From assembly GCA_019308655.1 (NCBI GenBank), contig JAFDHS010000012.1, positions 1-24,247 of the forward strand: a DNA stretch of 24,247 nucleotides, written 5' to 3'. This DNA is from Deltaproteobacteria bacterium (GTDB lineage: Bacteria > Desulfobacterota > Desulfobacteria > Desulfobacterales > JAFDHS01). The position numbers and the translations under genes were made by a program. Within the stretch, counting starts at the first letter, position 1. Each line of letters begins with the position of its first letter. Shown piece after piece: positions 11,349 to 23,238 of this stretch. The notes under the pieces were generated by a model. That model saw nothing but the letters and a program-made list of their open reading frames with translations, had not been told where the DNA came from and did not search any database.

Positions 11349-11714
11349 ATGTACGTTGTAATTTTTCTTCTGATAGCTGTAATTGCCGGTTTTTCCCCTT
11401 TCATCGTTTCTAAGCTTGTTCGTCCTAAATCCCCCACTTCTGAGAGAACCCGTACGACATATGAATGTGGCGCATTGCCCTATGGTGAGGCTTGGAACTT
11501 TCGATTCGGTATTGCCTACTACCTATATGCCTTGATTTTTTTGGCTTTTGACGTTGATATCCTTTATCTGTTTCCGGTTGCCGCTGCTTTTGATAAGGTG
11601 CCTGGATTCCGGGGTATTGTTGAGTTGCTTATTTTTGTAGGTATCTTATCCTTGGCAATTGTCTATGCCTGGAACAAAGGAGTCTTTACGTGGAAGAAAA
11701 AAGAGGTCGCTTAA
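11349..11714 (+). CDS. nuoA: Complex I-like subunit A
   Basis: Three TM segments, TYECG loop, [30 protein letters not shown]. Confidence 0.96.
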
Positions 11715-12325
11715 CCCTTGATTCCTATGCAAAGGATCTCAAGGATAAGCTAAGGAAAGAAGTATCCGTTATACCCGGTGAAACGGATGCCGGGCCGTTG
11801 ACTCGTTTCGAGTTGACAGATAGAATAATAGATTTGTGTCGGGCAAATTCACTTTGGCCCATGACATTTGGAATTGCTTGTTGCGCCATTGAAATGATGG
11901 CGGCGGGAATGGCACGCTTTGATATTTCTCGATACGGATCAGAGGTTTTTCGACCCTCTCCCCGGCAGAGTGATCTTATGATTGTTGCGGGTACCGTGAA
12001 TAAAAAATTCGCTCCGATTTTGGTGACGCTTTATGAGCAAATGCCTTCTCCTAAATGGGTTATTGCTATGGGTAACTGCGCGATATCGGGCGGCCCGTTT
12101 GCTCCCAAAGAGAATTATAATATAATTGAAGGCGTGGATAAGTTGATTCCCGTTGATGTTTATGTGCCTGGTTGTCCCCCCCGTCCCGAAGGGTTGATTG
12201 AGGGGATTCTCAAACTGCAGGAAAAGATCACTAAAGTACGTTATCCTTTTCCCCAGAACAAGATGCCGGCGGAAGATACGGCGGGGATTCAAACCAGATG
12301 GCCAAAATGGGGAAAAGATAAATGA
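11690..12325 (+). CDS. nuoB: Complex I-like subunit B (N2 cluster)
   Basis: [17 protein letters not shown] (tandem Cys), [38 protein letters not shown] start preceded by AAAGGAG. Confidence 0.97.
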
Positions 12326-12849
12326 AATCGATGAATCAGTTTGTGGATGCTTTGAAGCGTCTGTCCGTTCAGATCAGCGAAGTCGATTACGACAGGCGCG
12401 GCTATCATCTTGAGGTATCGATGGCAGATAATCAGGTGCGTGAGTTTGCCAAAGCCATGCTTGATAACGAATTTTATTTGGTGTTTGTTACGGCGAATCA
12501 CGTAAAACCCGCCATTGAGGTTGTTTATCAATTTGCTCATTTTAGCACACCCTGTCGAGTATGTGCTCGGGCTTGTGTTGCTGAAGGCGAAAAAATATCT
12601 ACGATATCGGATATTTTTCATGGAGCGGATTGGCATGAGCGGGAGACAAAGGATTTTTTTGGGGTAAATTTTGAAGGGCACCCCAACCTTAAACCGTTGC
12701 TTCTTGCAGAAGATGATGCGGATCTTAAGCCACTCTTAAAGAGTGAAAAAATGTTGAAAAACGTGGAAGAAATCCGTTGGCAGGGAGAAAAGCCCGCTAA
12801 GCCTGCCGCCGCCGGTAAACAGGCTGAACAAAAAGCGGAGCAGAGCTGA
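12322..12849 (+). CDS. nuoC: Complex I-like subunit C
   Basis: [35 protein letters not shown] (ERE.. F.GHP motif). ATGA overlap with nuoB. Confidence 0.94.
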
Positions 12850-12854
12850 TAATC

Positions 12855-13970
12855 ATGAAATCAGAAACGAATACCCAGCAAAACCAATCTTTTACCTTGA
12901 ATATGGGACCGCAACACCCTAGTACGCATGGGGTTTTGCAGGTAATTCTGGAAATGGATGGGGAGTATGTTCTTGATCCTCAGCCGGTTTTGGGCTACAT
13001 CCATCGAATGCACGAAAAGATGGGTGAATCAAGGCCCTGTAGAAAATTTTTGCCGAATACCGGACGAATGGATTATGTTTGTGCCTTGCCTTTCAATCAT
13101 GGCTATGTCGGTCTCATTGAACGGGCGGCAGGAATTGAGGTGCCTCCCCGCGCTGAATACATTCGAGTAATCACTTCGGAATTAAACCGGGTCGCTAGTC
13201 ATCTTCTCTGGCTTGGGGCATTTCTTCTTGATTTGGGTGCCTTTACTCCGATTATGTATTCATTTGATGATAGAGAACAGATTCTTGATATTCTTGAAGA
13301 AATAACCGGATCGAGATTGACTTACTGTTACTTCCGGCCGGGAGGCGTTTACCAGGACATTAGTGATAAATTTATTGAAGGAACCAGGGCTTTTATCAAA
13401 CGAATGCGCAGTCGATTCAGCATTTATGAAAAACTGGTTGCTACAAATATTATTTTTATAAAGCGAGCAGAGGGAGTCGGAGTCATCAGCCCTGATATGG
13501 CTCGGAGATATGGTGTTACCGGCCCTCTTTTGCGAGGTTCAGGCATTTCGTATGACATTCGCAAACAAGAGCCCTATTCGGTTTATTCTGACTTTGATTT
13601 TGATGTCCCGGTGGGGGAAAATGGTGATTCTTTGGATCGCTATAAGGTCAGGGTTCAGGAAATGGAACAGAGTCTGCGGATCATTGAGCAAGCCCTTGAT
13701 AAATTGCCGGAAGGTCCTTATTTGGGTAAGGCTCCGAAAAAAATCAAGTTGCCACCGGGTGATAGTAGCTTTTCAGTTGAAGCGGCGCGTGGAGAACTTG
13801 CATATTATCTTGTAGGTGATGGAAGTGAGATACCCTATCGCTTAAAGATAAGAGTTCCCTCTTATTCCAATTTAAGTGTATTGCCGGAACTGGGCCGGGG
13901 TATACTTTTAGCTGACCTGGTAACGATTATGGGCAGTTTTGATCTGGTTATCCCCGAGATTGACAGATAA
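12855..13970 (+). CDS. nuoD: Complex I-like subunit D (quinone-binding, not a NiFe large subunit)
   Basis: NMGPQHPSTHGVL, GYIHRMHEK, RMDY, ELNRVASHL, EAARGEL, C-terminal DLVIPEIDR. No CxxC Ni-binding motifs. Confidence 0.97.
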   Translation: MKSETNTQQNQSFTLNMGPQHPSTHGVLQVILEMDGEYVLDPQPVLGYIHRMHEKMGESRPCRKFLPNTGRMDYVCALPFNHGYVGLIERAAGIEVPPRAEYIRVITSELNRVASHLLWLGAFLLDLGAFTPIMYSFDDREQILDILEEITGSRLTYCYFRPGGVYQDISDKFIEGTRAFIKRMRSRFSIYEKLVATNIIFIKRAEGVGVISPDMARRYGVTGPLLRGSGISYDIRKQEPYSVYSDFDFDVPVGENGDSLDRYKVRVQEMEQSLRIIEQALDKLPEGPYLGKAPKKIKLPPGDSSFSVEAARGELAYYLVGDGSEIPYRLKIRVPSYSNLSVLPELGRGILLADLVTIMGSFDLVIPEIDR

Positions 13971-13975
13971 AAATT

Positions 13976-14968
13976 ATGGAAATCACATCTTTTTTACCTC
14001 CTGACATTATTCGTATGATTGTTTCCGCAGTTGTCATTATCTCTTTTGTGTTTTTAAACGCTATGGTGATGACGTATGCGGAACGAAAACTCGCGGGACA
14101 CTTTCAGCGTCGTCCGGGACCCATGGAGGTCGGGTCACATGGGCTGTTGCAAGTGATCGTTGATGGTCTAAAACTGATCGGTAAACAGCTTATCCTTCCA
14201 AAGGACGTCGATCGACCTTTGTTTCGGTTAGCTCCTTTACTGGCGTTTATTCCTGTAGTTTTACCTTTTATTGTCATTCCTTTCAGTGAAAAATTGCAGG
14301 TGGCGGATTTGAATATCGGCCTGATTTTTATCCTGGCGATTTCATCCCTGAACGGTATGGCTGTCCTGATTGCGGGCTGGAGTTCCAATAATAAATATTC
14401 CTTGTTTGGCGCTTTACGTTCCGTAGCCCAGAATATAGCGTATGAAATTCCTATACTGCTGGTCGTTTTAACGGTTGCCCTGATGGCCAATACGTTTAGC
14501 TTGAAGGGTCTTGTCGAGGCTCAGAGCGGTATGTGGTTTATTCTGCTTCAGCCGGTTGCCTTTATAATTTACTTTATTGCCGGACTGGCGGAGACAAACC
14601 GTGCTCCTTTTGATTTGTCTGAGGCAGAAAGTGAATTAACAGCCGGTTTTCATACCGAATACAGTGGTATGGGATTCAGTCTCTTTTTTCTGGGCGAATA
14701 TGCGAATATGTTTGTCGTATGTTCGATAGCTACAATTCTCTTCCTTGGAGGTTGGCACGGCATTCCCTTGCCGTTCTTGGAATATACCGGGGTCTTCTGG
14801 TTTTTGTTAAAAGTGTACGCGCTTTTATTTGTTATGATCTGGTGCAGATGGACCTATCCTCGTGTGCGTTTTGACCAGTTGATGAATCTGGCTTGGAAGT
14901 ATTTGATTCCGTTTTCTCTGGTTAATTTTATAATAACAGCAATAGTACTGGTAATCGTGAAACTATGA
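13976..14968 (+). CDS. nuoH: Complex I-like subunit H
   Basis: AERKLAGHFQRRPGP, VDGLKLIGKQ, GWSSNNKYSLFGALR, AETNRAPFDLSEAESELTAGFHTEYSG, RWTYPRVRFDQLM. Confidence 0.97.
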   Translation: MEITSFLPPDIIRMIVSAVVIISFVFLNAMVMTYAERKLAGHFQRRPGPMEVGSHGLLQVIVDGLKLIGKQLILPKDVDRPLFRLAPLLAFIPVVLPFIVIPFSEKLQVADLNIGLIFILAISSLNGMAVLIAGWSSNNKYSLFGALRSVAQNIAYEIPILLVVLTVALMANTFSLKGLVEAQSGMWFILLQPVAFIIYFIAGLAETNRAPFDLSEAESELTAGFHTEYSGMGFSLFFLGEYANMFVVCSIATILFLGGWHGIPLPFLEYTGVFWFLLKVYALLFVMIWCRWTYPRVRFDQLMNLAWKYLIPFSLVNFIITAIVLVIVKL

Positions 14969-15408
14969 GCGGCTATTTTTCAGAAATCCTAACTGGCGGC
15001 AAGAGTCTTTTGGTGGGTTTAGGTGTAACCTTTAAGGCCATGCTCCAGCCTGTTGTTACCGTGCAGTATCCGCGGGAAAAGACTGATGTAACTAGCTCTA
15101 ACTACCGCGGGCATATTGAGTTGGTTAGAAACCCTGAAACCGGTTCTTTTAAGTGTATTGCCTGTGGCTTGTGTGCCAAGGCGTGTCCTTCTGAATGCAT
15201 CACTGTAAAAAGTGAAAAGAGGGAAGGTGTAAAGGGTAAGGTTTTAACGGTTTTTCAGCTTGATTTTACCAAATGCAGTCTGTGTGGTTCCTGTGTGGAA
15301 GCCTGTAATAAAGGGGCGATAAGATTCTCCCAGGATTACAATATTGCCGGTTTTACCAAAGAAGAGTTTCACTACGATTTGCTTAAACGGCTGGAGGAAA
15401 TGGGATGA
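14965..15408 (+). CDS. nuoI: Complex I-like subunit I (2x[4Fe-4S])
   Basis: VTVQYPRE, CIACGLCAKACP and CSLCGSCVEAC ferredoxin motifs. Confidence 0.95.
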   Translation: MSGYFSEILTGGKSLLVGLGVTFKAMLQPVVTVQYPREKTDVTSSNYRGHIELVRNPETGSFKCIACGLCAKACPSECITVKSEKREGVKGKVLTVFQLDFTKCSLCGSCVEACNKGAIRFSQDYNIAGFTKEEFHYDLLKRLEEMG

Positions 15409-15929
15409 TTTTCTACCGCTATATTGCAGAGTTTATGTTTTTTTTCTTCATTTTTCTTACCTTTGCCGGTGCTTTGCTGGCGGTTAGGACTAGATTATTG
15501 ATGCATGCACTTTTAGGCCTGGCGGTTTCGTTTTTAGGAGTTGCCGGGCTGTATTTTTATCTTGGCAGTTTATTCTTGTCAATGATGCAGATACTTATAT
15601 ATGTGGGGGCTATTTGCATTGTAATCGCTTTTGGTATTATGGTCGGTTATACGCCTGAGCAGTTGAAGGAGAAGAAGATTGCCGGTAAAAACCTGCTGTT
15701 GGGTGTATCTGCCGCTGTTGTCGTATTTTCCTTGTTGTTTGTAGCTATTTGGCGGACTGTCTGGGTTCCGGCTGTAACTCGGGTGGGAGATTTTTCTTTG
15801 GCTTGGCTGGGGCAGAATCTGCTCTACAATTATTGCTTGGCCTTTGAATTGATTTCGGTAGTGCTTCTGGCTGCTATTGTTGGAGCTATAATTCTGGCCG
15901 GTGAAGGAAGGGAGGAAAAGGTTCGATGA
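15405..15929 (+). CDS. nuoJ: Complex I-like subunit J
   Basis: Five TM segments, QILIYVGAICIVIAFGIM, YCLAFELISVVLLAAIVGAIIL. Confidence 0.94.
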   Translation: MIFYRYIAEFMFFFFIFLTFAGALLAVRTRLLMHALLGLAVSFLGVAGLYFYLGSLFLSMMQILIYVGAICIVIAFGIMVGYTPEQLKEKKIAGKNLLLGVSAAVVVFSLLFVAIWRTVWVPAVTRVGDFSLAWLGQNLLYNYCLAFELISVVLLAAIVGAIILAGEGREEKVR

Positions 15930-16243
15930 TGCTGAGCGATAATCTCAATACGTATCTGCTCGTTGCCGTTTTTTTGTTAATCGTTGGAATTTTCGGTATG
16001 ATTCAGCATCGATCTTTTATCGGAATGCTGCTTTCAACCGAACTGATTCTAAGCGGCGCAGGGCTTAATTTTATGGCGTTTAACCGTTTTTTGTCGCCAA
16101 ACCTGGCTGTCGGCCAGATTTTTACCATGTTTATTATGGGGATTGCGGCAGCGGAAGCGGCCATTGGCGTTAGTATTATCCTTGCGGTTTACCGCAAATA
16201 CAAAACTGTTGATCCGGATGAGGTTCACGATTTAAGGGGATAA
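15926..16243 (+). CDS. nuoK: Complex I-like subunit K
   Basis: Three TM segments, MLLSTELILSG, GQIFTMFIMGIAAAEAAIGVSII with both conserved Glu. Confidence 0.95.
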   Translation: MMLSDNLNTYLLVAVFLLIVGIFGMIQHRSFIGMLLSTELILSGAGLNFMAFNRFLSPNLAVGQIFTMFIMGIAAAEAAIGVSIILAVYRKYKTVDPDEVHDLRG

Positions 16244-16399: not shown

Positions 16400-17893
16400 A
16401 TGGAAACAATCATCACCAATAAAATTTTATTGACCCCGGCTATTCCCATGATAACTGCTATTTTAATAATGGCTTCAGGGAAAAAGCCGAATTTGAGGGA
16501 GTCTTGGTCAATTATCGGGGCTATACTGACCTTCCTCTCTGTTGTTACCCTTTTGCCCCGGATTCTTGCAGGTGGATCATTTCAGTGTACCCTGTTTACA
16601 CTCTATCCCGGGATTTCGGTCAAATTCCATCTGGATGGTTTAGGCATCCTGTTTGCCGGGACGGCTTCTTTTTTGTGGATTTTAGCCGGTTTTTACTGTA
16701 TCGGCTACATGAGGGGACTCAACGAGCATGCTCAGACACGGTTTTATGTCTGTTATGCCGTGTCGGTCGGCGCTGCCATGGGTGCTGCGTTTGCCGGTAA
16801 TTTGTTTACACTCTACCTATTTTATGAAATCGTTTCTATCTTTACCTATCCGCTGGTTGCTCACCATCAGGATGCTGAAGGGTATGAGGGGTCTAAAAAG
16901 TATATCGTCTATCTGATGTTTACTTCAAAGGCTTTTCTTCTTCCGGCCATGGTTCTGGTTTACCTTCAGTGCGGGACGTTAGATTTTTCAACGACCGGTA
17001 TCGTGAATGGTATTTTTCCTCATGATGCAAGCGGTATCCTGGTTATTGTTACATATTGTCTTTGTTTTTTTGGATTTGCCAAGGCAGGTGTCATGCCGCT
17101 GCACAGCTGGCTGCCTTCGGCCATGGTTGCTCCGACACCGGTCAGTGCCCTTTTACATGCAGTAGTTGTTGTTAAGGTCGGTGTTTTTTCCGTCTGTAGA
17201 GTAATGCTCTCTGTTTTCGGAATCAACTTGTTACAGGGACTTCACCTGGGTATTGTTACAGCCTATTTCGTCTCTTTTACCATTGTCGTGGCCTCGGTGA
17301 TCGCTCTGAGCAAATCCAATCTCAAGGCGAGATTAGCCTATTCGACCGTCAGTCAGCTCTCCTATATAATTTTGGGTGTTGCAATGCTTACGCCAAATTC
17401 TATTACGGGCGGACTGATTCATATTGCCAACCACGCTTTTTCCAAGATTACGCTGTTTTTCTGTGCGGGTGCTATTTTTGTAGCCACCGGCAAAAAGGAC
17501 ATCAAGGAGTTGGGCGGCTTAGGTTATCGGATGCCTTTTACCATGATTGCATTTGGTCTGGCGTCCTTAAGTATGATTGGTGCACCACCGGTTTCCGGCT
17601 TCGTTACCAAATGGTATCTGGCTTTGGGAGCCATGGACTTGCATAATGTTATCCTTTTGGCTGTGCTTCTGGTCAGCAGTCTTTTGAATGCCGGTTATTT
17701 TGTACCCATTTTTCTGCAATCCTTTTACGGTAAACCTTTACCGGCGGATAAATCGGCAACGGGTTCCCTTGAGGCTTCTCCGCTTATAATGTTGATGGTG
17801 GTACCTCTTTTTATAACCGCTGTCGCCTCGGTATTGTTCGGCATTTACCCTGATCTTTTTCTCAATATTATAAACGTACTTGTGGGGAAATGA
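16400..17893 (+). CDS. Extra antiporter-like subunit (Mrp/NuoL-M-N superfamily, 14-TM type without lateral helix)
   Basis: LYLFYEIVS (TM5 Glu), FAKAGVMPLHSWLPSAMVAPTPVSALLHAVVVVKVG (TM7 Lys, TM8 His/Lys), LAYSTVSQLSYI, HIANHAFSKITLFF, GFVTKWYL. It ends shortly after GIYP, with no NuoL-type C-terminal helix. Confidence 0.9.
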   Translation: METIITNKILLTPAIPMITAILIMASGKKPNLRESWSIIGAILTFLSVVTLLPRILAGGSFQCTLFTLYPGISVKFHLDGLGILFAGTASFLWILAGFYCIGYMRGLNEHAQTRFYVCYAVSVGAAMGAAFAGNLFTLYLFYEIVSIFTYPLVAHHQDAEGYEGSKKYIVYLMFTSKAFLLPAMVLVYLQCGTLDFSTTGIVNGIFPHDASGILVIVTYCLCFFGFAKAGVMPLHSWLPSAMVAPTPVSALLHAVVVVKVGVFSVCRVMLSVFGINLLQGLHLGIVTAYFVSFTIVVASVIALSKSNLKARLAYSTVSQLSYIILGVAMLTPNSITGGLIHIANHAFSKITLFFCAGAIFVATGKKDIKELGGLGYRMPFTMIAFGLASLSMIGAPPVSGFVTKWYLALGAMDLHNVILLAVLLVSSLLNAGYFVPIFLQSFYGKPLPADKSATGSLEASPLIMLMVVPLFITAVASVLFGIYPDLFLNIINVLVGK

Positions 17894-18138
17894 TGGCACG
17901 TCTTTTTACTTATTTGAGAGATCACTCTCAGGTTTTGAAATGGCTGTTTTATGTTTTTTTAGCACTCGCAATTGCTTTTGATTTCTTTGCTGAACGGCAT
18001 CAACCTCATTTTTGGGGTGACGGTATCGTTGGCTTCTGGTCCATGTTTGGTATACTCGGCTGTCTGGGGATGATCATTCTTTGCAAAGGTCTTTCTCATG
18101 TCTGGCTTATGAAGGATGAAGATTATTATGATAAATAA
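17890..18138 (+). CDS. Small 2-TM hypothetical membrane protein
   Basis: 82 aa with two hydrophobic segments flanking HQPHFWGDGIVGFW and a C-terminal EDYYDK. It overlaps both neighbouring antiporter-like genes, which suggests translational coupling. Confidence 0.82.
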   Translation: MMARLFTYLRDHSQVLKWLFYVFLALAIAFDFFAERHQPHFWGDGIVGFWSMFGILGCLGMIILCKGLSHVWLMKDEDYYDK

Positions 18139-19897
18139 CAGTATTTTTATCCATCCGGCTACCTATTTTATACTCGGCGCCGTTCTTCTGCCCTTTTTAA
18201 AGCGGTTTAAACTGTTGCAGAAGATTATAATGATTATTATCCCTTTACTGGCATTTTACCAGATAAATTATCTGCCGGATACCTTTGGCGTTTGTGAGTA
18301 TATGGGGTTCAAGCTGATTTTCGGAAAGGTTGACAAGCTGACCTATGTTTTTCTGCATGTCTTTACCTTGATGGCCGTAATCGGCAATGTATATGGCCTC
18401 CATGTCAAAGAAACCGGGCAACGTATGGCCGGTCTTCTGTATGTCGCCGGTTCCCTGGGCGTAACCCTGGCCGGTGATTATTTGACGCTTTTTATATTTT
18501 GGGAGTTGATGGCTTTTGCATCGGTTTTTCTTGTCTGGTATCGTAAGAAGAAACAATCTATTCAGGCGGGTTACCGTTATTTACTGGTCCATACCGCAGG
18601 TGGTTTGATCCTTCTGGGTGGAATATTTTTACGTTATCAAAATATTCATGACCTTAGTTTTACGCAAATCGCAGTCAATGGCGCTACGTTCGCCGACTAC
18701 CTGATTATGATTGGGTTTATGTTGAATGCGGCTGTTCCTCCGATACATGCCTGGTTACCTGATGCCTACCCGGAAGCCACGGTAACGGGAGCTGTTTTCA
18801 TGTGCGCTTTTACGACCAAAACAGCAGTTTATGTTTTGGCGAGAGCCTTCCCCGGATTTGAAGCGCTTGCCATTCTGGGCGCAATAATGACCCTTTACGG
18901 TGTCGGCTATGCTGTGATTGAGAATGATGCCCGGCGGATTTTGGCTTATCACATTGTCAGCCAGGTCGGATATATGGTTTGCGGTATTGGAATCGGCACG
19001 GCTATGGCGATCAATGGTACTTGTGCTCATGCCTATGCTCATATCCTTTATAAGGCCCTGTTGTTTATGGGTGCGGGAGCCGTCCTTGAAATGACGGGTA
19101 GATCAAAGCTGAGCGAATTGGGCGGTCTCTATAAGTACATGCCTCTTACACTTATATTTACGGTGATTGGTGGAATCTCCATTTCCGGCTTTCCCTTTAC
19201 CAGCGGCTTTATCAGTAAATCGATGATCATTGCTGCTGCGGGCGAGCATCACCGTCTGGGTTTAATGATTATGATGACCCTTGCTGCGGTCGGTACATTC
19301 TTGTCGGTAGGTATTAAATTGCCTTATTTTATCTGGTTCGGCAAGGATTCCGGTGTAAAAGCCCAGGATCCTCCATGGAATATGCTGCTGGGTATGTTTA
19401 TTGCCGGGTTTATGTGCTTCTTTTTGGGCGTGTATCCTGAATACCTTTACCGCATGCTGCCGTACGATGTGGCTTATCATCCGTATACGATGTACCATTT
19501 GTCGGAAACCCTCCAGATTCTTGGTTTTACCGGCTTGGGCTTCTACTTCATGGTCAAGTATTTAAAACCCGAAGCGCATGCCAACCTTGATGTAGATTGG
19601 TTTTACCGTAAGGGAGCTCTCGTCTTCATGTGGCTTGCTTCCAAACCGATTGGTATCGCCAATGAATGGGTCGGAAATGTTTATAAAACGGTCGGCTTGC
19701 GATTTACTATGGCGGTAGCTAAAGCGCTTTCATGGTTTGATTGGGAAGGGATCGATTGGGTTATTGACGGATCGGCCAGAGGTGTTGTCAATGGAGGAGA
19801 TCAGATGCGCGGCTTTCAAACGGGTAAAGTCCAGCATTACATTGGGGGCGCTGTAGTTGTTCTGTCAATCGTTCTTATTGTAGTGGTTCTTTTGTAA
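18116..19897 (+). CDS. NuoL-like / Mrp-related antiporter subunit with C-terminal lateral helix
   Basis: FIFWELMA, HAWLPDAYPEA, LAYHIVSQVGYM, HAYAHILYKALLFMGAG, GFISKSMI. The C-terminus has the NuoL-type FD..GID..IDG...R.FQTGKVQHY plus a final TM. Start may be ATG 18128. Confidence 0.88.
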   Translation: MKIIMINNSIFIHPATYFILGAVLLPFLKRFKLLQKIIMIIIPLLAFYQINYLPDTFGVCEYMGFKLIFGKVDKLTYVFLHVFTLMAVIGNVYGLHVKETGQRMAGLLYVAGSLGVTLAGDYLTLFIFWELMAFASVFLVWYRKKKQSIQAGYRYLLVHTAGGLILLGGIFLRYQNIHDLSFTQIAVNGATFADYLIMIGFMLNAAVPPIHAWLPDAYPEATVTGAVFMCAFTTKTAVYVLARAFPGFEALAILGAIMTLYGVGYAVIENDARRILAYHIVSQVGYMVCGIGIGTAMAINGTCAHAYAHILYKALLFMGAGAVLEMTGRSKLSELGGLYKYMPLTLIFTVIGGISISGFPFTSGFISKSMIIAAAGEHHRLGLMIMMTLAAVGTFLSVGIKLPYFIWFGKDSGVKAQDPPWNMLLGMFIAGFMCFFLGVYPEYLYRMLPYDVAYHPYTMYHLSETLQILGFTGLGFYFMVKYLKPEAHANLDVDWFYRKGALVFMWLASKPIGIANEWVGNVYKTVGLRFTMAVAKALSWFDWEGIDWVIDGSARGVVNGGDQMRGFQTGKVQHYIGGAVVVLSIVLIVVVLL

Positions 19898-20015: not shown

Positions 20016-21551
20016 ATGGAAAAATATTTAATATTTAATGCCTTGAATTATCCGATTATAACGGTGTTGCTGGTTGTACCCTTAATCGGGGCGGTGTTTA
20101 CTTTATTTCTGAAAAAAAAGAGCCTTTTGAGAGTTTGGGGTCTGGCAGTTACTTTTCTTACTGCCGCACTATCTCTGCCTCTTTATTTCAATTTTGATTT
20201 GACTACACCTAAATATCAGTTTGTCGAACTTGGGCACTGGTTTCCTTCACTGCATCTTAACTATGTCGTCGGTGTGGATGGTATCAGCGTTCTTTTGGTC
20301 ATGCTGACTACATTTATCATGCCCCTTTGTATTTTATGTTCCTGGACTTATATTAAAGAACGGTTCAAGGAATTTGTCATTGTCATTTTGATTATTGAAA
20401 CAACAATGATCGGGGTTTTTGTCAGCCTGAATACTGTTCTCTTTTATATCTTCTGGGAAGCGATGCTGGTTCCCATGTATCTGATCATTGCCGTATGGGG
20501 CGGGCCGAGAAAGGATTATGCTTCCGTTAAGTTTTTCCTTTATACATTTATCGGCAGTATCTTTTTGCTGGTCTCTATTATTGCGCTTTATATCAAAACC
20601 GGTACTTTCTTCATTCCGGAATTGATGGACCATACCTACGCTTTTGGGTATCAGATGTGGATTTTTCTGGGCTGCACTCTGGCATTTGCAATCAAAATTC
20701 CCATGTTTCCCTTTCATACATGGTTACCTGCTGCACATGTGGAAGCTCCCACGGCCGGTAGTGTGATTCTGGCCAGTATTTTGCTTAAAATGGGTGGGTA
20801 TGGATTTTTACGCTTCTGTTTACCCATAGCGCCGGCGGCCACTTTTTATTGTATGCCCTATTTGTTGGCTTTTTCCATTATATCAATTGTCTATGGTGGC
20901 TATCTGGCCTTAGGACAAAGTGATATTAAAAAACTGATTGCCTACTCCAGTGTCGGGCACATGGGGTTCGTCACCCTGGGTATCTTTTTACTTAATGCGC
21001 AGGGAATAAAAGGGGCCATCTTACAGATGATCAATCACGGTATAACTACCGGTGCTCTGTTTATTTGTATCGGCATCATCTATGAACGTACCCATAGCCG
21101 CGAGCTTAAAGATAATTCGGCTCTGGGAATGATGATGCCCATTTATGTGACCTTTTTAGGGATCTTCTCCTTGTCTTCTCTGGGTTTTCCGGGAACAAAC
21201 AGTTTTGTCGGTGAGTTACTTGTATTGATGGGTGCTTTTTCCGAGAACAAACTGGTTGGTGCGCTTGCCATTCCGGGAGCAATTCTGGCTGCGGCCTATA
21301 TGTTAAGATTGCTTCAGAAGATGGTATGGGCGGATTCAGACGGTCATGCACATCACCACAAACCGGGCCATCACGTATTATCTGATTTGAACGGTCGTGA
21401 AATTTTTACCCTTTTCACTTTGGCGGTTTTTGTTTTCTGGATTGGCTTTCATCCCACTCCTCTGTTGGATGTCATGGATAGTAGTGTAACCCACTTATTG
21501 CATCAGCTAGAAGCCGGAATGCATCATGTCGGTGGTGCAATACATCATTAG
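20016..21551 (+). CDS. nuoM: Complex I-like subunit M
   Basis: VGVDGISVLLVMLT, FYIFWEAMLVPMYLIIAVWG, AFAIKIPMFPFHTWLPAAHVEAPTAGSVILASILLKMGGYG, GFPGTNSFVGE. Confidence 0.96.
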   Translation: MEKYLIFNALNYPIITVLLVVPLIGAVFTLFLKKKSLLRVWGLAVTFLTAALSLPLYFNFDLTTPKYQFVELGHWFPSLHLNYVVGVDGISVLLVMLTTFIMPLCILCSWTYIKERFKEFVIVILIIETTMIGVFVSLNTVLFYIFWEAMLVPMYLIIAVWGGPRKDYASVKFFLYTFIGSIFLLVSIIALYIKTGTFFIPELMDHTYAFGYQMWIFLGCTLAFAIKIPMFPFHTWLPAAHVEAPTAGSVILASILLKMGGYGFLRFCLPIAPAATFYCMPYLLAFSIISIVYGGYLALGQSDIKKLIAYSSVGHMGFVTLGIFLLNAQGIKGAILQMINHGITTGALFICIGIIYERTHSRELKDNSALGMMMPIYVTFLGIFSLSSLGFPGTNSFVGELLVLMGAFSENKLVGALAIPGAILAAAYMLRLLQKMVWADSDGHAHHHKPGHHVLSDLNGREIFTLFTLAVFVFWIGFHPTPLLDVMDSSVTHLLHQLEAGMHHVGGAIHH

Positions 21552-21666: not shown

Positions 21667-23238
21667 ATGCAGATCACTCTTTTTCTTCCTGAAATAGTTT
21701 TGACTTTCATGGTTTTGGCATTCTTTTTTGTTTCCCTGGGAAAACCCAAAAGCGGTTTTTTGCAAGGATTGGCGCTTGTCCTTTCCGCCGCGGCCATATT
21801 AGCATCCGTAGTCACCTATGGCCAGGAGGGATCACTCTTTTTAGATGTTTACCGGGTGGATGCTTTTTCACAGATATTTAAGGTTCTCATTACATTCGGT
21901 TTATTTCTGGTGATCTATCTGGCGCCGAAACTAACAGGGATCGAAAAAAATTTGCATCCCGAGTTTTATCTTTTTCTGGCTTTAAGTTCACTGGGACTGG
22001 TAATGTTAAGCAGTGCCGTAGAACTGTTGACTATATTACTCTGCCTGGAGATCTCTTCATACGCGATCTATATAATTATACCCCTTCGTAAGAACCATGA
22101 GCATAGGGAACAGATGGAAGCCGGGATTAAATATATCCTTTTCGGTGCGGCAGCTACCGGCGTTACTTTGTACGGTATGAGCTACATTTTTGGTTTGGCG
22201 CATACCACTTATCTTGACGGTTTGGTCAAAGTTCTTCCATCACTGATTCAAAGTCAACCGCTTGCAATTATAGGCATGATAATGATGCTTTGCGGCTTTT
22301 TTTACAAACTGGCCCTTTTCCCCATGCATTTCTGGACTCCGGATGTTTACGAAGGGGCATCTAATGAAACCACCAGCTTTGTAGCTACGCTTCCCAAGGT
22401 TGGTGCTGTTGCTCTGCTTATCCGGCTGGTTTCTCTTACAGGGGTTGATTTAGGACAGTTTACGTGGATACTGGCGACATTTGCCGTCCTGTCAATGACC
22501 CTCGGCAATCTTTCCGCTCTGGTCCAGAATGATATCAAACGTCTTTTGGCATACTCCAGTATTGCTCATGCCGGCTATGTGATGCTGGGTATTCTTTGTG
22601 TCAACGAATTGGGATTGTCTTCAGCGATTTATTATATCGCCGGCTATATGTTGATGAACCTGGCCTGTTTTTACGTTATTTATAACATTGCACCTTCGGG
22701 TAAAAACGTTAGTTTTGTCGACTTGAAAGGTCTATACAAAAATTCTCCTTTGTTGGCCTTTGCTCTTGCCGTAGGGGCATTTGGTATGGCGGGAATACCT
22801 CCAACGATCGGTTTTACCGGTAAGTTCCTTATCTTTACGGGTGCAATCAATAAGGGACTCTATGCCTTGGTGATTTTGGCGGTTATTAATGCCGGAATCT
22901 CTGCTTTCTATTATTTAAAGATGGTTAGAGCCGCTTACTCGACTTCTGGTACACCGATGGCTAAAATCAATCTTGGTTTTTCCACAAGTCTTTTAGGTTT
23001 TGGCCTTATTCTCGCAATTATACTTCTTGGAATTTTCCCGCAAAGTTTTATCGAACTTTCCAGAGAAGCAATTGTGGCAATTTTTTTATTCTTTTGCGCG
23101 TTTTTTTATGGGAATAATCATAGCTTCGGCCATTGTTGTATGGCCGAAATATTGAAAAGGCCGCAGATTACGAAAGAATCAGTAAAATGCCGGGAGTGGA
23201 TTCATCTGATTTTACGATTATGGATAGATCGGGAGTAA
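21667..23238 (+). CDS. nuoN: Complex I-like subunit N (last ~50 aa look like a non-homologous read-through tail)
   Basis: LEISSYAIY, EAGIKYILFG, FYKLALFPMHFWTPDVYEGA, KRLLAYSSIAHAGY, GIPPTIGFTGK, ISAFYYLKMV. Confidence 0.95.
   Translation: MQITLFLPEIVLTFMVLAFFFVSLGKPKSGFLQGLALVLSAAAILASVVTYGQEGSLFLDVYRVDAFSQIFKVLITFGLFLVIYLAPKLTGIEKNLHPEFYLFLALSSLGLVMLSSAVELLTILLCLEISSYAIYIIIPLRKNHEHREQMEAGIKYILFGAAATGVTLYGMSYIFGLAHTTYLDGLVKVLPSLIQSQPLAIIGMIMMLCGFFYKLALFPMHFWTPDVYEGASNETTSFVATLPKVGAVALLIRLVSLTGVDLGQFTWILATFAVLSMTLGNLSALVQNDIKRLLAYSSIAHAGYVMLGILCVNELGLSSAIYYIAGYMLMNLACFYVIYNIAPSGKNVSFVDLKGLYKNSPLLAFALAVGAFGMAGIPPTIGFTGKFLIFTGAINKGLYALVILAVINAGISAFYYLKMVRAAYSTSGTPMAKINLGFSTSLLGFGLILAIILLGIFPQSFIELSREAIVAIFLFFCAFFYGNNHSFGHCCMAEILKRPQITKESVKCREWIHLILRLWIDRE
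23125..23148. other. 9-bp perfect hairpin between convergent nuoN and HisKA genes (possible terminator or pause site)
   Basis: TTCGGCCAT (23125-23133) / ATGGCCGAA (23140-23148) with a 6-nt loop, 20 nt past the HisKA stop. No clear U-tract on either strand. Confidence 0.5.

Follow-up and report, generated by a model that had tools for sequence, protein, structure and literature searches.

Gene cluster and family of the 593-residue subunit

The window analysed here, the whole 24,247 nucleotide stretch at positions 1 to 24,247 of contig JAFDHS010000012.1 (assembly GCA_019308655.1) from a Deltaproteobacteria bacterium of the Desulfobacterales, carries a cluster of complex I genes in a single orientation, nuoABCDHIJK-mrpD1-82aa-mrpD2-nuoM-nuoN. 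The subject of this report is the 593 amino acid (aa) antiporter-like subunit encoded by mrpD2. It is an MrpD2-type subunit of a "green complex I" and carries a lateral helix that is longer than that of canonical NuoL. The names mrpD1 and mrpD2 follow Yu et al. (PMC9040806), and antiporter-like subunits are called pumps below. The genes of the cluster, with the evidence for each, are the following.

11349..16243, forward strand: nuoA, B, C, D, H, I, J and K (open reading frame list; A, D, H, J and K also by Pfam)
16400..17893, forward strand: mrpD1-type antiporter-like subunit, 497 aa, without a lateral helix (NF006236, 739 bits against a cut-off of 663)
17890..18138, forward strand: 82-aa membrane protein between mrpD1 and mrpD2 (no Pfam or NCBIfam match)
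18116..19897, forward strand: mrpD2-type antiporter-like subunit, 593 aa, with transmembrane helix (TM) 15, lateral helix and TM16 (NF009310, PF00361, AlphaFold2 (AF2) model)
20016..21551, forward strand: nuoM (TIGR01972, 585 bits)
21667..23238, forward strand: nuoN (TIGR01770, 344 bits against a cut-off of 332.6)

The open reading frame list and Pfam show nuoE, nuoF and nuoG to be absent from the cluster.

The 593-aa protein matches the NCBIfam model NF009310 (PRK12668, "Na(+)/H(+) antiporter subunit D", MrpD2 type) with 749 bits against a cut-off of 564. The match is full-length, with residues 10–590 on profile positions 5–581 of 584. A Pfam PF00361 (Proton_antipo_M) domain is found at residues 119–390, with 164.7 bits and over the gathering score. 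The protein falls below the NuoL models, with 161.1 bits against 407.5 for TIGR01974 (NDH_I_L) and 167 against 556 for NF005141. Thus the subunit, termed NuoL-like in the initial annotation, is not NuoL by family. The C-terminal layout of canonical NuoL is present, with TM15, lateral helix, TM16 and the D..IDG and QTGxxQxY motifs. Among solved structures the best relatives by sequence are MbsH' (6u8y_X) and MbhH. The Pyrococcus MBS subunit MbsH' also displays TM15, a lateral helix and TM16 and gives the best structure match (E = 4.6e-36), but the match is limited to the core (query residues 27–448). MBS has two pumps and a shorter lateral helix (PMC8165549).

The two extra pump genes of the window fit the MrpD-type models NF006236 and NF009310. 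Two MrpD-like genes beside nuoK take the place of NuoL, with nuoM and nuoN next, and on this layout the cluster is assigned to green complex I. [quoted passage not shown] The MrpD2 of a Rhizobium lentis plasmid (p1, NZ_CP071455.1; locus L233) is 54% identical to that of the window and shows the same motif. The R. lentis operon has the order nuoJ-K-mrpD1-84aa-mrpD2-M-N-A-B-C-D-E-F-G and, unlike the window, retains nuoEFG, the NADH module. The second nuoM that characterizes a 2M complex I is not present; TIGR01972 finds one NuoM gene only in the cluster.

Short-arm and other homologues were taken from a metagenome scan and from a survey of 201 genomes of the window's phylum. All 80 related genome loci show the gene order of the window as far as the contigs extend. 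These loci are from Desulfobacterales, Desulfuromonadales and relatives and show 71–82% identity. Cultivable carriers of such loci include Desulfuromusa kysingii DSM 7343, Desulfoluna limicola and Desulfobotulus alkaliphilus (L054, L077 and L072).

The gene for the 82-aa protein overlaps both of its neighbours: its start coincides in part with the mrpD1 stop, and its last 23 bases are shared with the beginning of mrpD2. A gene of 68–107 aa is situated directly upstream of mrpD2 in every context with called genes listed, both nuo-type and Mrp-type. A tblastn search with the 82-aa protein of the window finds the small gene in most, though not all, of the surveyed loci.

Length and predicted structure of the lateral helix

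The C-terminal part of the 593-aa protein is divided as follows, with residue numbers given for each feature.

19490..19552, forward strand: TM15, residues 459–479 (AF2 helix, inside the part superposed on E. coli NuoL)
19586..19609, forward strand: family motif L-D-V-D-W-F-Y-R, residues 491–498, which opens the lateral helix (conservation in alignments)
19595..19672, forward strand: segment first read as "extra", residues 494–519, the first half of helix part 1
19595..19750, forward strand: lateral helix part 1, residues 494–545 (DSSP helix, predicted local distance difference test (pLDDT) approximately 72)
19736..19771, forward strand: NuoL-like FD..ID..IDG motif, residues 541–552, at the helix break (sequence; model break at 546–553)
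19775..19822, forward strand: lateral helix part 2, residues 554–569, ending in the QTG motif at 19817–19825 (DSSP helix, low pLDDT)
19829..19894, forward strand: TM16 anchor, residues 572–593 (DSSP helix 572–592)

D494 of the VDWFY motif is encoded by codon 19595–19597 and Q568 of QTG by codon 19817–19819, and the span between them is 75 residues, as had been counted initially. In E. coli K-12 NuoL the equivalent stretch from D542 to E587, which aligns with Q, counts 46 residues, or 47 if taken to N588, close to the 46–48 residues given in the initial annotation. In 17 canonical NuoL sequences from genomes of the window's own phylum, all over the TIGR01974 cut-off, the span is 50–51 residues. 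Three of 20 NuoL loci (L173, L186 and L189) were left out, as no VDxxY or QTG motif was found in them; in L173 and L186 the longest open reading frame is a wrong-frame one.

The net excess of the window span over canonical NuoL is thus 24–29 residues, and the structure superpositions described below agree with this. The motifs place the excess between VDxxY and FD..IDG, where there are 48 residues in the window protein compared with approximately 23 in NuoL. Measured from the same Asp to TM16, the distance is 82 residues in the window protein and 53–58 in NuoL. From Asp to the C-terminus, 98–100 residues are found in 78 orthologues with the same gene order, and the excess is therefore not a chance feature of a single sequence. 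The R. lentis plasmid protein has a D-to-Q span of 75 and a D-to-TM16 distance of 82, identical to the window. The lateral helix is approximately 25 residues longer than in canonical NuoL; this corresponds to approximately 38 Å, or one pump width, in agreement with the width first estimated.

A phmmer search of PDB sequences with the C-terminal parts 450–593 and 330–593 gave no match for the helix region. As this region is not alignable to solved NuoL by sequence alone, structure and motifs were used for the comparison. The AF2 model of the 593-aa protein has an overall pLDDT of 88 and gives TM15 at 459–479, a continuous helix at 494–545, a break at 546–553, a second helix at 554–569 and TM16 at 572–592. 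TM16 contains the most hydrophobic 18-mer (Kyte-Doolittle mean 3.2). Canonical NuoL of the same phylum carries the sequence FID..IIDGxVNG, and QTGxxQxY is common to it and the window protein.

Canonical NuoL and Nqo12 (E. coli 3rko/7z84, Thermus 4he8) share with the window protein the 14-TM core, TM15, the lateral helix and TM16, together with the VDxxY, D..IDG and QTGxxQxY motifs (VIA-align Z = 41–42). The identity is 20–23%, the NuoL helix is 24–29 residues shorter after the Asp, and in E. coli NuoL the linker from TM15 to the Asp is 17 residues longer than that of the window protein. VIA-align superposes model residues 9–513 on E. coli NuoL 2–561 with a root-mean-square deviation of 2.6 Å and places D494 on D542 of FDWLY. 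In looser superpositions model residue ~546 lies at E. coli ~593, the start of TM16, with approximately 30 model residues still to come before its own TM16. A control model of P0178, a short-arm three-pump Mrp homologue, shows a helix at 491–535 and TM16 at 547–566. It matches E. coli NuoL (1–566 on 2–613) and Thermus Nqo12 (1–567 on 1–604) from end to end. Because the control spans the whole of NuoL and the window model overshoots it, the window arm extends approximately 25–30 residues beyond NuoL length.

Course of the arm and number of pumps

The explanation favoured here, with some confidence, assigns to MrpD2 the role of a distal strap subunit, whose arm crosses MrpD1, NuoM and NuoN and is then anchored by TM16 close to NuoN/NuoK. 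An Mrp-derived block of MrpD1, the 82-aa protein and MrpD2 would replace NuoL. The surface helix after TM15 would start at LDVDWFYR (D494) and run 82 residues to the TM16 anchor. As for complex I, the docking site of the NuoL-like IDG...QTG end and of TM16 would presumably lie on the NuoN/NuoK side. The extra ~25 residues would let the helix pass over MrpD1, putatively situated in line between MrpD2 and NuoM. The membrane arm would then have the order MrpD2-MrpD1-NuoM-NuoN-NuoK/J/A-NuoH.

The MrpD1-MrpD2 pair was predicted from paired alignments (MrpD1 30–497 with MrpD2 9–540), trimmed to a total of 1000 residues in such a way that both side-by-side arrangements were kept possible. The prediction score is 0.57, compared with 0.00 for the best of three controls, and is graded as weak support: of 80 solved complexes 58 attain the score mark, as do 2 of 110 mismatched pairs, but those that attain it with 0.60 or less are only 7 of the 80 solved complexes together with both passing mismatches. 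The interface is the same in 3 of 3 runs, with the TM12–14 side of MrpD1 (393–444) on the TM4–5 side of MrpD2 (126–175). Helix residues 505, 507–509, 512–513, 516 and 519–520 are predicted to touch MrpD1. In complex I neighbouring subunits, e.g. NuoM and NuoL, meet with the TM12 side of the proximal one turned towards TM5 of the one distal to it. The predicted geometry resembles that of NuoM and NuoL and thus would place MrpD2 distally, with MrpD1 under its arm.

According to a review (PMC8165549), lateral-helix length in MBH, MBS, Mrp and complex I goes with how many antiporter-like subunits the complex has. For the Nitrospira 2M complex I, which has a fourth pump, a lateral helix approximately 26 residues longer has been described and taken to extend across the additional pump (Chadwick et al., 2018, ISME J 12:2668, as given in PMC9040806). 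In that enzyme a second NuoM is the additional pump, and a true NuoL with an insertion serves as the strap. In the window these roles fall to MrpD1 as the additional pump and MrpD2 as the strap, and the surplus was part of the helix ancestrally. The MrpD1-small-MrpD2 block recurs in the Complex_I_3 of "Ca. Manganitrophaceae" (Yu et al., 2022, PMC9040806), and locus L082 is a relative of that kind. Unlike the window, this type has a second NuoM and approximately 26–31 more residues between IDG and QTG (113 residues from D to TM16, compared with 82).

Among the relatives, the distance from Asp to TM16 is 81–82 residues in four-pump clusters (80 of 84 nuo-type loci). It is mostly 54–60 in 85 Mrp-type loci, which is a NuoL-like length. 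The stand-alone Mrp-type clusters have the layout mnhE, mrpF, mnhG, mbhD, mnhB, mnhC, X, mrpD1, small, mrpD2, with three pumps. They share with the window the MrpD1-small-MrpD2 block (40–57% identity) and the LDxDWFYR helix start but contain no nuo genes and no IDG...QTG end. Their arm measures 74–79 residues from Asp to the C-terminus in 67 of 69 relatives from the metagenome scan. In the five-pump cluster L082 (mrpD1-small-mrpD2-M-M-N) the distances are 113 to TM16 and 134 to the C-terminus. These two values fit the 26-residue insertion, relative to the rhizobial protein, that is reported by Yu et al. (2022; PMC9040806).

Several points weigh against an arm fitted to a fourth pump. In the survey of 201 genomes, three-pump stand-alone Mrp arms vary from 69 to 125 residues between Asp and C-terminus at the same gene content; L192, L195 and L167 have 103 residues, L193 and L194 have 125, and L199, L206 and others also fall within this range. 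L191 has the four-pump gene order of the window but an arm of 125 residues. The longest arm seen, 138 residues, is found in L081 (1572–3593), where the gene directly follows nuoJ-nuoK without mrpD1 or the small protein. The long first part of the helix (44–50 residues) is ancestral to the MrpD2 family and is also present in three-pump complexes; a fourth pump is not what it arose for. The confidence of the model is moderate in the helix (pLDDT approximately 72) and poor past residue 546. The pair prediction, besides its weak grade, uses author-built alignments and may reflect a memory of NuoL-NuoM or MrpA-MrpD structures, and the literature searches made here did not find a solved structure of green complex I.

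A strict ruler, in which arms of approximately 76, 100 and 130 residues stand for two, three and four pumps bridged, is refuted by L167, L192–L195 and L191. Arm length correlates with pump number but does not count pumps, because the arms of L191 and of several three-pump Mrp loci are too long. The initial annotation considered the length its best evidence for a fourth subunit built into the arm. The length is suggestive of this but is not the best evidence, given L191 and the long Mrp arms. When stand-alone Mrp clusters are compared for an arm of the same length, most are 23 residues shorter, in keeping with that idea, but several reach 103–125, which counts in part against it.

The surplus may alternatively be lineage baggage with no role in spacing. 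MrpD1 would then be situated elsewhere, e.g. distal to MrpD2, and the surplus helix would lie on MrpD2 itself or bulge as part of a C-terminal arm that is long and variable throughout the family. The range of 69 to 125 residues at identical gene content is what such an account leads one to expect, as are the four pumps but five-pump-length arm of L191 and the homology, in three-pump homologues, of the opening 18 residues of the "extra" segment. This explanation, the main rival, is nevertheless rather unlikely. The nuo-type length is tightly kept, at 98–100 in 78 loci and the same in Rhizobium. As judged by eye, the long stand-alone Mrp-type arms hold their surplus mostly as charged, hydrophilic stretches before TM16, unlike the window protein. 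MrpD1 is also predicted on the helix side in 3 of 3 runs, although the opposite interface was available.

Other arrangements are found among these loci. The stand-alone Mrp-type cluster with the mrpD1-small-mrpD2 end is widespread (L097, L167, L190–L222). The Mrp-type locus L208 (8894–12616) contains two tandem MrpD2-type genes with arms of 104 and 106 residues, giving four antiporter-like subunits and two straps. In L081 unrelated genes are found downstream of the MrpD2-type gene, and nuoM and nuoN are elsewhere or absent.

Origin of the surplus and implications

The initial annotation described residues 494–519 as an extra amphipathic segment that looks like a partial duplication. The segment is indeed moderately amphipathic, and with 18-residue Kyte-Doolittle means of 0.86 or lower it is not TM-like. 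Its conservation shows helical periodicity with a peak at 105 degrees in 79 distinct orthologues, as would be expected of a helix that packs on one face. Within its own family it does not represent an insertion, as its motif is conserved across the family. In an alignment of 141 diverse members of the family, conservation at D492, D494 and R498 is 90% or higher. In 66 nuo-type and Mrp-type sequences L491, D494, W495 and Y497 likewise reach 90% or more, D492 and R498 never vary, and the LDxDWFYR helix start is found in stand-alone Mrp homologues as well. A proline corresponding to P511, approximately 17 residues past the Asp, recurs in several nuo-type and Mrp-type tails.

A partial duplication is not supported either, as self-alignment is no better than with shuffled sequences. 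Local alignment of 494–519 with 518–545 gives a score of 18, compared with 20 ± 4.3 for shuffles, i.e. no repeat. The best self-alignment of the whole arm also scores 18, with shuffles at 22 ± 4 and 88% of them at least as high. Tandem duplications are found in relatives. In L191 (8995–10830) the surplus consists of a tandem duplication of the IDGxVNG unit with an offset of 26 residues (self-score 42 compared with 21 ± 4 for shuffles). Taken together, L191 and L224 (1464–3515) show the 26-offset duplication of an FD..VDGxVNG unit with scores of 42–43 against 21–24 ± 4, equalled by 0 of 200 shuffles. A duplication of this kind is not significant in the window arm. A search of the antiporter-like genes of the L191 genome did not find a spare nuoM, and the only other NF009310 match at E ≤ 1e-60 in that genome is in a hydrogenase-like cluster.

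A recent 26-residue insertion or partial duplication at 494–519 in an otherwise NuoL-type helix is thus very improbable and was rejected on the shuffling tests and the family conservation of LDxDWFYR: the surplus over NuoL does map between VDxxY and FD..IDG, and genuine 26-residue duplications do exist in L191 and L224, but the arm has no internal repeat, the segment opens on the motif that is best conserved in the MrpD2 family, the protein does not pass the NuoL model, and the unit duplicated in L191 and L224 is the IDGxVNG unit at another location. That residues 494–519 form one more transmembrane helix, a re-entrant helix or a loop can be dismissed with similar assurance, since the hydrophobic ALVFMWLA followed by K-P-I-G, a potential helix breaker, has to be set against Kyte-Doolittle means of at most 0.86 (3.2 for TM16), a continuous AF2 surface helix at 494–545 that superposes on the NuoL lateral helix, and the inverted TM16 topology that a further TM helix would bring.

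The arm most likely consists of an ancestrally long Mrp-type first part and a NuoL-like end. It can be suggested tentatively that the MrpD2 of green complex I is a chimera, with an Mrp-type core, TM15 and long first helix part fused to a NuoL-type helix end (IDG...QTG) and TM16, and that tandem duplication of the IDGxVNG unit lengthens the arm by 26 residues at a time. If so, a ready-made Mrp pump pair could dock onto NuoM and NuoN, and arms of ~56, 82 and 108–113 residues from Asp to TM16 would pre-adapt the subunit to, or record, the bridging of 2, 3 and 4 pumps. Arms that appear too long, such as that of L191, would then mark enzymes recruiting a pump encoded elsewhere.

Other features of the window and its genome may be recorded here. 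The nuoN open reading frame is 523 aa and extends approximately 50 residues past the end of the NuoN models (the TIGR01770 match stops at residue 461); called homologues elsewhere have 473–475 aa. The extra tail is rich in Cys/His and in charged residues and may be a genuine extension or the result of a lost stop. The end of NuoM (21350–21551) carries two histidine-rich stretches, …GHAHHHKPGHH… and …HHVGGAIHH. Two further antiporter-like genes, approximately 28% identical to NuoL, are found in the same metagenome-assembled genome (G000) on contigs C428 and C8 (L230 and L231). These contigs are very short, and comparable genes of a related genome are situated in a hydrogenase-like cluster (L232).

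Earlier papers have described both the cluster type and the family, as well as the idea that the arm lengthens to take in extra pumps. The new point may be only that the "green" MrpD2 arms of the window and of R. lentis are already one pump-width longer than the arm of NuoL. For genome surveys this carries a warning, namely that arm length alone should not serve to count pumps. In anaerobes and nitrogen-fixing symbionts, four-pump variants of complex I are assumed to transport a fifth ion in each cycle or to give reverse electron flow a stronger drive. For the enzyme encoded in the window, the length of the arm and the predicted contact with MrpD1 argue for the in-line order MrpD2-MrpD1-NuoM-NuoN.

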